A stretch of DNA of 61,570 nt from a virus: positions 1 through 61,570 of the IMG/VR virus record IMGVR_UViG_3300023223_000518; one strand, given 5' to 3'. The stretch's first letter is position 1; each line of letters starts with the position of its first letter. Below, one piece after another: positions 5,484 through 55,994 of the stretch. The position numbers and the translations under genes were made by a program. The notes under the pieces were generated by a model, which had not been told where the DNA came from, did no database searches, and was given only the letters and a program-made list of their open reading frames with translations.

Positions 5484-5686
5484 TCGAGATGCCCAACCGT
5501 TTGGTGGAGATTCGTGAAAAGATTGAGAATGGAGAACCGGTCGACTACTCCAAGTACTGCGACCTCGTCACCCTCGACATCGCGATCGCCGGGCAGGAGT
5601 TTGTCACCGATGCCGGTCGCTTCTGGGAGAAAGAGGATGACCGAATCCGCCGAGAACTCGAAGCGGCCAGAGGAGGAAATGGGTAG
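5480..5686 (+). CDS. hypothetical protein (68 aa)
   Basis: Internal ATG of track ORF 5354..5686, chosen because of the ATGA coupling to the upstream gene. Confidence 0.45.
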   Translation: MIEMPNRLVEIREKIENGEPVDYSKYCDLVTLDIAIAGQEFVTDAGRFWEKEDDRIRRELEAARGGNG

Positions 5687-6035
5687 CGGCCTTGCCCCGA
5701 ACGGTGACATCAAGCCGTGGTGGAAGTCGTGGCAAAAAAAGCGAGAGTTCGACATGGAACTTGAGGAGGATTTGCTTCGCAAGAACTTCGACATGCCGAA
5801 GCCAACTCCAATGCGAGACGTCAATAGCAACAACAACACCGGCATCGGGGCGAGGGGTTTGATTGGCGTCGCTCTTGCCGCAGCGATTCCCGGTCTTGGC
5901 GGTGCATACATGGCGTATCAGGCGATGAACAAGGAGCCGACAGTCATCGAAAAGAGGGTTGCCGGCCCACCGGGCAAGACGGTTCCAGGCACGAACACCG
6001 ACTTAAAACTCAAGACGCCGATAATCCGAGAATGA
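5679..6035 (+). CDS. membrane protein (118 aa)
   Basis: AGGAGGA SD lies 2 nt upstream of the ATG at 5679. Predicted TM helix GLIGVALAAAIPGLGGAYMAY. Confidence 0.5.
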   Translation: MGSGLAPNGDIKPWWKSWQKKREFDMELEEDLLRKNFDMPKPTPMRDVNSNNNTGIGARGLIGVALAAAIPGLGGAYMAYQAMNKEPTVIEKRVAGPPGKTVPGTNTDLKLKTPIIRE

Positions 6036-35941: not shown

Positions 35942-36223
35942 TCAATCGCCTTGCCGCTTCACGCGAGCGGCTGTTGGTCCAGCATCTTCACCCGTAAGAT
36001 GGACCCGATGCTCGCATTGTTGCAAGGCAATTCGATATTGGTTGGCCGTGCATCTTTGCCACAGATACGTTCTGACTGCGTTGCGTGGCAATTCCGGAGC
36101 GTTAGCGAAGATTTCCTTATCAATCCCAACGGCCAGCGGAACATACTTTCCGAACGCGAGTGGGTAATGCGCTTTGAGAAAGGTGCTAATTTGATCGAGC
36201 TTCTTCTGTGGCACTTTTCGCAT
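35942..36223 (-). CDS. ProQ/FinO-domain RNA-binding protein
   Basis: 93 aa. ISTFLKAHYPLAFGKYVPLAVGIDKEIF...NAVRTYLWQRCTANQYRIAL...HRVHLTGEDAG follows the FLxxxFPxxF..PLxIGIxxD(L/I)...LRxxLxxYTxxxxY...RxDLxG pattern of the ProQ N-terminal domain. The ATG lies 1 nt after the upstream stop. Confidence 0.65.
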   Translation of the reverse strand: MRKVPQKKLDQISTFLKAHYPLAFGKYVPLAVGIDKEIFANAPELPRNAVRTYLWQRCTANQYRIALQQCEHRVHLTGEDAGPTAARVKRQGD

Positions 36224-36224
36224 T

Positions 36225-36449
36225 TCATCGACCTGCGATGTCGAACTCAATACCATTGGCATTGACCGGACTGGAAAAAAAACTAATCGCTTCCGCAAGT
36301 TTGTTGAAGTGCTCGACGGCCTGTTGATTCTCCAGACCTACGAATATTGAACCGTGCGCCGGGTCCATCTCAGAAATGGTTCCATCAGAAAGATGCACGC
36401 GAATCTGCTGAAGTTCGCTGATCTTGATTCTAAGAAACGCTTTATTCAT
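36225..36449 (-). CDS. hypothetical protein (74 aa)
   Basis: Middle gene of the minus-strand operon. ATGA-coupled to 36446..36643. Confidence 0.5.
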   Translation of the reverse strand: MNKAFLRIKISELQQIRVHLSDGTISEMDPAHGSIFVGLENQQAVEHFNKLAEAISFFSSPVNANGIEFDIAGR

Positions 36450-36864: not shown

Positions 36865-37402
36865 GCGTGCAAAGGTGTTTCGAACGATGCCAATGATCCC
36901 AAAAACGGACACGGAACGCAATGCCGATATCGGCTTTCGTTCAGGTTTTCCCGTTTCCCAGCGATCAGCCTCATCGCGAGAGCGGACCGGCGGAGAGTCG
37001 CCGGGAGATCAGAACTGGTATGGTAGCCAAACCATGCACGGGCAAAGGAATCGCGCTTCCCGCAACGCGATGTTCGTAGCGATTGGACCTCAAGACAAAA
37101 CACCGCTCTGTCACCCTGCAACGGTGTCCTGCCCCGAATTACAATCGCGATCTCGCCGTCAATCTTTCGCGCGCATCAAAGCTGACCGAACCGTTTCTTC
37201 CAAAGCGCGACGCCAGATCGCGCGCAAAATTGCCAGTTCTCGATACGCTCTTGCATTCGATTCCGATATGTATCTGTTTTGGTGGATTGGGAATCGGTGA
37301 GAATGCGAGAATCGCCCGGATCGCTTTGAAGGCGACCGGACGACTCGCATCAAGATAATCGAACTGTTGGATGGGGCAGGTAATTGGGGCGGTTGCGCGC
37401 TA

Positions 37403-37431
37403 TTGCATGAAACGCGATTGCTGATTATGAT
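37403..37431 (+). promoter_or_regulatory. candidate sigma70-like rightward (early?) promoter
   Basis: TTGCAT (37403-37408), 17-nt spacer, TATGAT (37426-37431), 64 nt upstream of the ATG at 37495. Confidence 0.4.
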
Positions 37432-37494: not shown

Positions 37495-37797
37495 ATGGAC
37501 GCTCATTTGATTGGTGCTATCGGTGTTCTCACCGTCGTCGCGATCGAGCAACGCGACCGCTTTCGAAGCACGATGACAGTCGCCATCGTAAAACGTGCAT
37601 CTGACATTACGACGCTCGTCATTGTGTTCGTAGCATACTCTATTTCTATCGGAGCATTTCTGGAGGGACTTAGGTACGGTTTGTCTTTACTCTTCCAGAT
37701 TTCGTATGGCACCCCAGATTTTACGGGCCTCGGACTCGTCGTATTCGTGATATCAACAATCGCGACGTTGCCGCATTGCATGAAACGGGATATCTGA
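37495..37797 (+). CDS. membrane protein (100 aa)
   Basis: Three hydrophobic segments. GGAGGGTGATC SD. Confidence 0.55.
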   Translation: MDAHLIGAIGVLTVVAIEQRDRFRSTMTVAIVKRASDITTLVIVFVAYSISIGAFLEGLRYGLSLLFQISYGTPDFTGLGLVVFVISTIATLPHCMKRDI

Positions 37798-38179: not shown

Positions 38180-38317
38180 TCTGAGCCGGATCACTCGAAT
38201 GGCCGGAAGCGATCCGCCGGCGAGAATATCCGGCTCCTTATGATCGGGTTGTCGTGTGACACGAATTGCGATATCTTCTGCGCTCCGGTTGCATTGCATG
38301 AAATGAGAAATCACCCG

Positions 38318-38740
38318 ATGGCAAAAAAGAACTCGAAGAACTCGAAGAAGTCGAAGAAGTCGAAGAAGTCGAAGCCGGCCCTCGCGAAGATGTTCTATCG
38401 CTGGCCTCAAGACTGGAGGGACGCGGCGGATGATCTGAAAGACGACGATGAAACGATGGTTCAATTCCTGTTGTCGATCTTGCGCCCGATACTCGAGGGG
38501 AAAGTCAAACTTGTACGAGACGAGAATCGGCGCGTCATCGAATATAAAACGCGACCCCGAAGAATCGCCAGGCTGTCAGAACCTCAGACAGGCATCGGAC
38601 GCAAGCCCGACAACGCAAGAGCCGCGGAGATGTATGCCCACTTCAAGAGATCGAAAAGCATCGCGGAGACAGCGCAGCACTTCGGATGCGTCCCGTCGAA
38701 TGTACGGCGGATATTCACACGCTGCGAATACGACTTCTAA
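38318..38740 (+). CDS. DNA-binding protein with K/S-rich N-terminus and C-terminal HTH
   Basis: N-terminus MAKKNSKNSKKSKKSKKSK. C-terminal KSIAETAQHFGCVPSNVRRIF resembles a resolvase or sigma region 4 HTH. Confidence 0.55.
   Translation: MAKKNSKNSKKSKKSKKSKPALAKMFYRWPQDWRDAADDLKDDDETMVQFLLSILRPILEGKVKLVRDENRRVIEYKTRPRRIARLSEPQTGIGRKPDNARAAEMYAHFKRSKSIAETAQHFGCVPSNVRRIFTRCEYDF
38327..38374 (+). repeat. 9-bp tandem repeat x5.3 (AAGAA[C/G]TCG)
   Basis: aagaactcg aagaactcg aagaagtcg aagaagtcg aagaagtcg aag, encoding (KNS)2(KKS)3K. Confidence 0.9.
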
Positions 38741-38751
38741 GGAGGGAACCC

Positions 38752-38931
38752 GTGTTAGTCCTGTCGAGAAAACGGAACGAATCGATCATCATCGCCGAGA
38801 ACATCGTCATCACCGTGGTTGAGGTCCGCGGCGATAAGGTCCGGCTCGGCATTGAAGCGCCCCGCGAAATCTCGATCCATCGATCAGAGGTTTTTGACGC
38901 AATCCGAAAAGAACTCGCAGCGAGCGCTTGA
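38752..38931 (+). CDS. csrA: carbon storage regulator CsrA/RsmA homologue
   Basis: GTG start, 5 nt after an AAGGAGGGA SD. (M)LVLSRKRNESIIIAENIVITVVEVRGDKVRLGIEAPREISIHRSEVFDAIRKE aligns along its whole length with E. coli CsrA ([52 protein letters not shown]). Confidence 0.85.
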   Translation: MLVLSRKRNESIIIAENIVITVVEVRGDKVRLGIEAPREISIHRSEVFDAIRKELAASA

Positions 38932-39221
38932 CCGATATCGCATTTCATGCCATGATAGGGCATCGGATCATTATTGATTCGATGCTCTTCTCTTGCGCGG
39001 GTGATAACAGCGATGAAAAAGGCAGCGTTCTTTCAAGCGTGTGGCGGAGCGATCTTCGGCGTTACTGCTCCGCGGATCGAATGGGGCGAACACCCAACTC
39101 TTCACTTTTATCGGGTCACACTTCATGGCAGGCGCAGAAGCGGAATGACCGAACTTCAACTTTACAAACCGAATCAACGCGACATGTTTCTATCAGGCGG
39201 ATCGAGCCGGGTTCAGGAGTT

Positions 39222-39479
39222 ATGCAAAAGAGAGGCGAGCAAATACCGGAGATGGCTGAAAGAATGGCAAAACAAACAATGATGACCACCACCGAGATCG
39301 CAAGAATCATGACAGAGCGCGGCGAGCCGATCACGGCATCCGGCGTGCGGTTCGTTATCGCGAGAGCGCTCGACAAGATGCGAGCGGCGTATGCTCTCGC
39401 CGATGAAGATGGATTCCCCGGCGAGACGCGGCGCATTGTGCCGCATAGAAGGAATCGGAAGCGATACCGATCATGCTAG
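39222..39479 (+). CDS. sigma region 4-like / HTH protein (start uncertain)
   Basis: Contains TTTEIARIMTERGEPITASGVRFVIARALDKMR. The upstream part of track ORF 38928..39479 does not look protein-like. Confidence 0.45.
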   Translation: MQKRGEQIPEMAERMAKQTMMTTTEIARIMTERGEPITASGVRFVIARALDKMRAAYALADEDGFPGETRRIVPHRRNRKRYRSC

Positions 39480-41441: not shown

Positions 41442-41521
41442 CGACGAGCATGAAATGAGATATCGTTTCGAGCGGCGAAAGCGCCGCTCATCTCTTACAC
41501 CTGATTCAAGGGAGATCGACC

Positions 41522-47419: not shown

Positions 47420-47455
47420 CCGCTTTTCTTTTCTCTTGACCTTGGGAGATCGACC

Positions 47456-52822: not shown

Positions 52823-52862
52823 AATGCCGCTATCACATTTCATGCCCTTGGGAGATCGACTC

Positions 52863-55764: not shown

Positions 55765-55994
55765 AATCATTCGAACATCCGGGCATCACTGTTTCAACGG
55801 CTTCGATTCGGCGCCTGACGGAAGGCATCACGCGCGCTCAAAAAGCTGTGCAAAGGTTTGCCGATCAATTCAAGCGAGCCACGATCCATGCTGTCGACGT
55901 GGACCGCTTCAGTATGGAGTTGAGATTGTCCTACGAAACCGATCGGCGCATCCGCCGGCGGATCAAACGCAAACTTAAGGAGATCGATCGATGA
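55761..55994 (+). CDS. hypothetical protein (77 aa)
   Basis: ATGA-coupled ORF. Confidence 0.45.
   Translation: MKSFEHPGITVSTASIRRLTEGITRAQKAVQRFADQFKRATIHAVDVDRFSMELRLSYETDRRIRRRIKRKLKEIDR

Follow-up and report, generated by a model that had tools for sequence, protein, structure and literature searches.

Does an uncultured virus carry a translational regulator of the CsrA family and, if so, on whose messenger RNAs would such a protein act? The question is raised by a short open reading frame in the 61,570-bp IMG/VR record that we analysed over its whole length (henceforth the window), which a preliminary description, made from the DNA letters alone, had read as a phage-encoded CsrA/RsmA-family regulator. 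The record represents a whole virus, with a 144-bp direct terminal repeat and a CheckV completeness of 100%, and it encodes a major capsid protein, a tape measure protein, a large terminase, a portal protein and a Mu-F-like protein. No tRNA genes were found in the window, and Rfam gave no matches at the gathering threshold anywhere in it. No integrase of the tyrosine or serine type was found in the complete 61.6-kb genome, and we therefore consider the phage to be probably virulent, or at least non-integrating. The features of the locus are collected in Table 1.

Table 1. Features of the csrA locus, its surroundings and the start-associated element in the window and in the related contig L002.
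Feature	Position	Strand	Description	Basis
csrA coding sequence	38752..38931	+	59 codons and stop, GTG start; tail-less CsrA-family predicted RNA-binding protein	Pfam, NCBIfam, PHROG 9500
csrA leader	38739..38751	+	Shine-Dalgarno sequence AAGGAGGGA (two overlapping GGA) and 4-nt spacer	sequence; cf. L002
Upstream gene, same operon	38318..38740	+	140 aa from ATG 38318 (alternative ATG 38240 gives 166 aa)	
Downstream gene	39222..39479	+	85 aa, possibly a sigma-70 region 4-like HTH protein	L002 homologue
12-mer ATTGCATGAAAT	38293..38304	.	near-palindromic, operator-like, directly upstream of the unit formed by the 140-aa gene and csrA	
12-mer ATTGCATGAAAT, inverted copy	38942..38953	.	11 nt past the csrA stop codon	
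Element copies (examples), window	41510-41521, 47444-47455, 52850-52862, 55978-55990	+		
Element copies (examples), L002	10312-10324, 12957-12969, 18360-18372			
ProQ/FinO gene	35942-36262	-	minimal ProQ/FinO-domain protein, 106 aa (93 aa from second ATG)	Pfam PF04352 43.2 bits, cut-off 27

The open reading frame is predicted to encode a CsrA-family protein

As first described, the reading frame comprises 59 codons, begins with GTG at position 38752 and has a Shine-Dalgarno (SD) sequence in front of it, and our translation is identical to the earlier one letter for letter. The identification had been staked on a match to the CsrA family, and the Pfam model PF02599 (CsrA) recognises the predicted protein far beyond chance (87.5 bits against a cut-off of 27, E 5.8e-25), aligning over positions 1-52 of its 53. 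Both NCBIfam equivalogs are passed as well (NF002469 with 83.7 bits, cut-off 73; TIGR00202 with 79.3 bits, cut-off 70.1), and the protein matches PHROG 9500, 'CsrA-like regulator', at E 6.6e-20; the genome behind this match to a phage profile has genes for capsid, tape measure, terminase and portal proteins. The protein aligns without gaps to solved CsrA/RsmA/RsmE structures in the PDB (E ~1e-13), and the proposed collinearity with E. coli CsrA holds, the alignment being gapless over residues 1-55 with 41% identity across the first 54. Its 59 aa lie within the size range of the family (~55-80 aa), whose topology is five strands followed by a C-terminal helix. An AlphaFold (AF2) monomer model (pLDDT 73.7) contains strands beta2-beta4 and a C-terminal helix (residues 44-58); no assignment is made for beta1 and beta5, which is to be expected in a monomer because both strands pair across the subunits of the dimer. 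When this model was compared to the PDB with Foldseek, the top 15 matches were all CsrA, RsmA or RsmE (probability 1.00, TM ~0.57).

The residues that contact RNA, singled out in the preliminary description as a point to check, are conserved. The phage protein retains all invariant residues of a 30-sequence alignment of Planctomycetota CsrA (the phage protein and 29 homologues), as well as L2, L4, R6, H43, R44 and E46 of the binding set in strands beta1 and beta5, among which L4 and R44 are critical for RNA binding by CsrA (review PMC7652899). Position 7 is K7 instead of R7, as in all Planctomycetota homologues; a change from P41 to S41 in strand beta5 could alter RNA specificity. Family models, structure matches and conserved residues, together with the purifying selection and conserved position documented below, agree with the reading as a phage-encoded CsrA/RsmA-family regulator, and the assignment of the predicted product of 38752-38931 to CsrA is supported by every sequence test that we applied.

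CsrA homologues on other phages and on a plasmid

The preliminary description implied that a phage CsrA would be a novelty, which it is not: apart from the PHROG family, 82 GenBank phage records contain a match, mostly from Pseudomonas and Vibrio phages and many of them annotated as CsrA-like or global regulator, and at least 128 viral stretches in IMG/VR encode a relative of this CsrA. Two surveys had already covered the ground. Of 2,517 phage genomes, 30 had csrA in the count of Sobrero & Valverde 2020 (PMC7366521). Campa et al. 2021, surveying GenBank and IMG/VR, saw phage and host CsrA occurring together and suggested that phage CsrA manipulates the host, including by repression of CRISPR-Cas (PMC8450108). 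None of the 82 GenBank records comes from a Planctomycetota phage. Since all 82 matches are less than 60% identical to the protein studied here (at most 52% among the 40 listed), the csrA gene of the 61.6-kb phage is apparently a separate capture, in a different phylum from the GenBank phage copies.

The phages represented in PHROG 9500 (Pseudomonas phi297, F116 and relatives, of the 'RsmM' type, and phages of Vibrio crassostreae) likewise encode a small CsrA in a tailed phage, and their hosts have a CsrA of their own, as here. Several of those Pseudomonas phages are temperate, whereas no integrase was found in the 61.6-kb genome. The functions proposed for their CsrA are the same as those considered below (PMC7366521, PMC8450108). 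The best experimental precedent for the mechanism that we propose is RsmQ, a CsrA/Rsm homologue that is also carried by a mobile element, plasmid pQBR103 of Pseudomonas fluorescens, and that, in experiments, takes over host translational control (Thompson et al. 2023, PMC9928087). RsmQ differs in that it acts from a plasmid and in a proteobacterium whose Rsm sRNA antagonists are known, whereas the case for the phage protein is built from sequence.

The csrA gene is the second of a two-gene unit conserved in a related phage

The unit consists of the gene for a 140-aa protein followed by csrA, whose SD sequence AAGGAGGGA (38739-38747) overlaps the TAA stop codon of the upstream gene (38738-38740) and whose own stop codon lies at 38929-38931. 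Because the leader overlaps that upstream stop codon, csrA is probably co-transcribed and translationally coupled with the upstream gene. The leader is also a candidate binding site for CsrA itself.

The one clear relative found for the phage is a 62.9-kb metagenomic contig (L002), which has 13 genes in common with the window, in the same order and with 38-75% amino-acid identity. The best conserved gene between the two is csrA (85%), its L002 copy encoding 63 aa at the same place. A survey of related phages, as had been suggested, thus finds csrA kept in the same operon position, in a lineage represented by this one relative; a search of IMG/VR with the neighbouring nuclease gave no further relatives closer than 27% identity. 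Directly before csrA, L002 encodes a 132-aa protein with 38% identity to the 140-aa protein of the window. The L002 leader has the same arrangement (CAAGGAGGG, 7 nt, GTG), so that both phages share the leader AAGGAGGG, and the two CsrA proteins have A15 and I40-S41 in common. Their genes are 73% identical at the nucleotide level, the highest value found (68% or less for the closest host genes listed). Together, the GTG start, the AAGGAGGG leader, the A15/I40-S41 residues and this nucleotide identity point to a single capture of csrA that predates the split of the two phages and to its retention since then. With synonymous sites saturated, dN/dS between the two phage copies is 0.037, which indicates that csrA is maintained under strong purifying selection.

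The neighbours of csrA were characterised less firmly than the preliminary description had them. The gene upstream, called an HTH protein there, is present, and its product is rich in lysine and serine at the N-terminus and weakly HTH-like at the C-terminus, but the HTH matches (residues 111-135, E ~0.1) are all sub-threshold. Four tandem 9-nt repeats at 38327-38371 (AAGAACTCG or AAGAAGTCG) encode a KNSKNSKKSKKSKKSK stretch in the N-terminus of this protein. Downstream, the open reading frame said to encode a sigma-region-4-like protein also exists, but its 85-aa product has no Pfam match of its own; the L002 homologue, 51% identical, matches Sigma70_r4 with E 0.0099 and 15.8 bits, under the cut-off of 24.1.

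The placement of csrA in an early or regulatory region is a reasonable inference, drawn from the gene content on both sides. Upstream of the unit, at ~36.3-38.2 kb, lies a gene-poor stretch with lower GC, and 3' of csrA small open reading frames are followed by genes for a PD-(D/E)XK nuclease, a ParB-methyltransferase, a topoisomerase-like protein and an AAA/SMC-like protein, which supports a position of csrA between a control region and DNA-metabolism genes. The two copies of the 12-mer at 38293-38304 and 38942-38953 bracket the two-gene unit as 21-nt arms that are 86% complementary and 621 nt apart. The four best copies of ATTGCATGAAAT genome-wide (37402-37413, 37775-37786, 38293-38304 and 38942-38953) all fall within 1.55 kb, have 0-1 mismatch, are embedded in longer 21-22-nt repeats and look like operators; at 2 mismatches the genome holds 10 copies against 7.1 expected, not above chance. 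The motif was not found in L002, and we rejected the palindrome as an element common to both phages.

Another gene for a putative RNA-binding domain lies 2.5 kb upstream of the csrA unit and encodes a minimal ProQ/FinO protein, matched best in the PDB by NMB1681 (3mw6). The protein is divergent: 44 of 1.84 billion representatives match at E<0.001, one relative with 67% identity and all others with 45% or less. No ProQ/FinO homologue was found in five candidate host genomes, in the syntenic region of L002 or in 80 other viral loci with csrA, on which grounds we rejected a conserved two-protein RNA module; the pairing of CsrA with ProQ/FinO looks like co-residence.

The phage CsrA resembles chromosomal CsrA of Planctomycetaceae

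Among 5.8 billion proteins, the nearest to the phage CsrA are chromosomal CsrA proteins of Planctomycetaceae (Gimesia maris, Gimesia algae, Planctomicrobium piriforme and many MAGs), with 75-89% identity over residues 1-54 and no gaps. In a scan of species-representative genomes, the best 80 records are mostly Planctomycetota, with identities up to 87%, besides a few MAGs that carry the label of another phylum. On the strength mainly of this CsrA similarity, the host of the phage is probably a member of the Planctomycetaceae; capsid homologues in 301 Planctomycetota genomes, at 24-35% identity, were uninformative for confirming it. Four contigs binned as Saccharibacteria or Staskawiczbacteria (L094, L102, L145 and L164) carry a Planctomycetota-type CsrA 69-78% identical to the phage protein and are probably mis-binned.

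Phage and host genes differ in several respects. The host proteins have 70-81 aa, with an acidic, variable, low-complexity C-terminal tail of 10-20 residues, whereas the phage protein stops after residue 59; A15 and I40-S41 of the phage correspond to D15 and V40-P41 in most hosts. Host csrA starts with ATG in 80 of 80 cases, with weak SD sequences in the seven leaders displayed, whereas phage csrA starts with GTG behind AAGGAGGG. In Gimesia, csrA is free-standing beside an HU gene; in the phage it is an operon member. At ~68% or less, the nucleotide identity to the closest host genes listed falls well below the protein identity of 87%, and synonymous sites are saturated, which rules against a recent transfer from the host and argues for an old capture. 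A quick CsrA protein tree (56 columns) gave a polytomy inside the Planctomycetota, with neither sisterhood of the phage genes nor a donor lineage resolved.

Two further CsrA variants came to light among the homologues. One MAG, Planctomycetaceae bacterium SJ810, has two CsrA paralogues (loci L086 and L158), and extra CsrA copies thus arise in the host family without phages. A 100-aa CsrA homologue (protein P0001), encoded on a 1.7-kb ENA contig, has residues 1-38 in duplicate, so that strands beta1-beta4 occur two times ahead of beta5 and the helix; this is either a fused variant resembling a pseudo-dimer or a product of faulty assembly.

A proposed role early in lytic infection

The reading that we favour, and consider reasonably probable, is that the phage supplies a host-derived, tail-less CsrA early in lytic infection, which would raise CsrA activity in the cell and change how the host CsrA regulon is translated. 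The gene would have been captured once, from a Planctomycetaceae-like host, by an ancestor of the window phage and L002, and would since have lost the host C-terminal tail and gained a strong SD sequence and a GTG start. It would be expressed as the second gene of a small operon heading the rightward early or DNA-metabolism module. Because its RNA-binding core is nearly identical to that of the host protein, phage CsrA would be expected to form the usual dimer and most likely to bind GGA motifs at or near the SD sequences of the host CsrA regulon. With this additional activity, infected cells would shift to a translational state that is 'CsrA-high' and favourable to phage production. Since the complete genome lacks an integrase, this action would fall in lytic infection rather than lysogeny.

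A start-associated GGA element is specific to the phage lineage

A different target would be the phage itself. The preliminary description had pointed to an invariant GGA-containing element in front of many genes of this virus, and by doing so had implied a link to CsrA. The element is real and start-associated, although it is not invariant and is absent from csrA itself. The commonest 8-mer on the + strand of the window is GAGATCGA, found 27 times there and 10 times on the - strand; in ~16 cases a start codon follows at a distance of 1-6 nt, the usual form being (G)GGAGATCGAC, and the full form GGAGATCGA occurs mainly between 39.6 and 56.5 kb, downstream of csrA. In L002, an ATG follows 7 of the 8 copies on the + strand. 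Across the window and L002, the element occurs 5.5-6 times per 10 kb and is start-associated in 43-73% of cases, compared to ~1 per 10 kb and ~11% in 80 other viral loci with csrA and 80 host loci. Thus, the start element is specific to the lineage of the window phage and L002.

Cluster K mycobacteriophages reportedly have start-associated sequences of a similar kind, said to be conserved motifs of ~11-13 nt that include the SD sequence and stand, like GGGAGATCGAC, directly upstream of a subset of starts. Their sequence and host phylum differ from those of GGGAGATCGAC, and the resemblance is a lead rather than an assignment of the element to that class.

Could phage CsrA mainly time phage translation, through the GGA in GGGAGATCGAC before ~16 genes and perhaps through its own leader AAGGAGGGA? 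The strand specificity and start association of the element, the location of most element-bearing genes in the module just downstream of csrA, and the conservation of the element in L002 despite protein identities of 38-75% are what such a role would lead one to expect, and the csrA leader itself contains two GGA, E. coli csrA being autoregulated by translational inhibition (PMC7652899). The leaders, however, are no more like CsrA sites than others: the GGA of the SD sequence has an unpaired probability of 0.44 in element-bearing and other leaders alike, there are 1.4 GGA per element-bearing leader compared to 1.3 in the others, and no conserved hairpin loop is found. The element is also a poor fit to the ANGGAN / RUACARGGAUGU consensus, and a GGA is present in any GGAG-type SD. 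Nor does the element travel with csrA, being unassociated with it in the 160 other viral and host loci. The implied connection between CsrA and the element, with GGAGATCGAC as a dedicated CsrA site, accordingly finds no support, and we regard timing of phage genes as an unlikely main function. Elsewhere in the genome, the densest AGGA cluster (6 copies in 300 nt, z = 6.4) lies at 5501-5850 on the + strand, at coordinates inside a listed open reading frame (5514-6035) and in a stretch with strong local AT skew.

Turning back to action on the host regulon, which we prefer, one version of it would have the extra CsrA act as a translational repressor of defence genes in the host, CRISPR-Cas or others. 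In Serratia, three CRISPR-Cas systems are under repression by RsmA, and such a role has been proposed for phage homologues (PMC8450108); the place of csrA, early in the rightward module of a phage that is apparently virulent, would suit it. Yet nothing at the csrA locus is specific to anti-defence, which would be a special case of taking over the host regulon rather than a distinct mechanism, and as the main function we think it quite improbable.

Viral copies of Planctomycetota-type CsrA tend to lack the host C-terminal tail

The missing tail is not peculiar to this phage. Among the CsrA copies retrieved with this query, the median length is 64.5 aa in 80 viral copies and 73 aa in 80 genomic ones, and 47.5% of the viral but 3.75% of the genomic copies have 63 aa or fewer (Mann-Whitney p = 1e-8), in a comparison that is uncontrolled for clade and whose viral contigs may include mis-called host DNA. 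The systematic shortness of viral copies of Planctomycetota-type CsrA is new here.

Tail loss might matter if the phage protein interfered with host CsrA, as a tail-less subunit in mixed dimers or by soaking up an antagonist. With a core 75-89% identical to that of host CsrA, mixed dimers are plausible, the loss of the tail is systematic in viral copies, and FliW binds CsrA at its extended C-terminus in other bacteria (PMC7652899). The antagonists that this would involve are, however, scarce. FliW is encoded in 1 of 81 sampled host-family genomes and in none of the 4 nearest; being nearly absent from the family, it cannot explain the tail loss, and we rejected escape from FliW as its cause. 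No decoy RNA is known for the hosts, and a phage-encoded CsrB/RsmZ-like decoy, whether placed in the gene-poor 36.3-38.2 kb or in another part of the genome, was rejected as well: the whole genome contains no GGA-dense segment (the maximum is 12 per 300 nt, with peaks at coordinates within long open reading frames), and a permissive Rfam search (E<=1) over 35.8-39.4 kb gave no match. Within these searches, CsrA does not appear as part of a complete Csr/Rsm system with a decoy sRNA or FliW. [quoted passage not shown] Interference with host CsrA is in our estimation about as improbable as a dedicated anti-defence role.

The recurrence of short viral copies nevertheless allows a suggestion, which we offer as possible but doubtful: tail loss may be a recurrent viral adaptation. 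Provided that the host tail serves an antagonist or a turnover signal as its handle, a phage CsrA lacking the tail would be constitutively active, with no means for the host to switch it off.

That csrA is a functionless passenger, picked up by chance and decaying, would suit a short gene with a GTG start and a single clear relative of its phage lineage, but is highly improbable given a dN/dS of 0.037 with saturated synonymous sites, intact family-invariant residues, and a position and leader conserved in L002, whose other proteins are 38-75% identical.

Implications

That phages carry CsrA to manipulate their hosts is a published idea, and the present gene therefore opens no new category. It provides a clean, complete example of a phage CsrA, of a known class, from a phylum with almost no characterised phages, and it gives an uncultured 61.6-kb virus a probable host assignment, the Planctomycetaceae. 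Within this phage lineage, csrA appears to be kept under strong selection in a conserved operon, and the general point is that viral copies tend to drop the host tail. If the tail is indeed shed to keep the protein active, Planctomycetes, most of which are without FliW and for which no Csr sRNAs are known, would possess an undiscovered mode of CsrA control.
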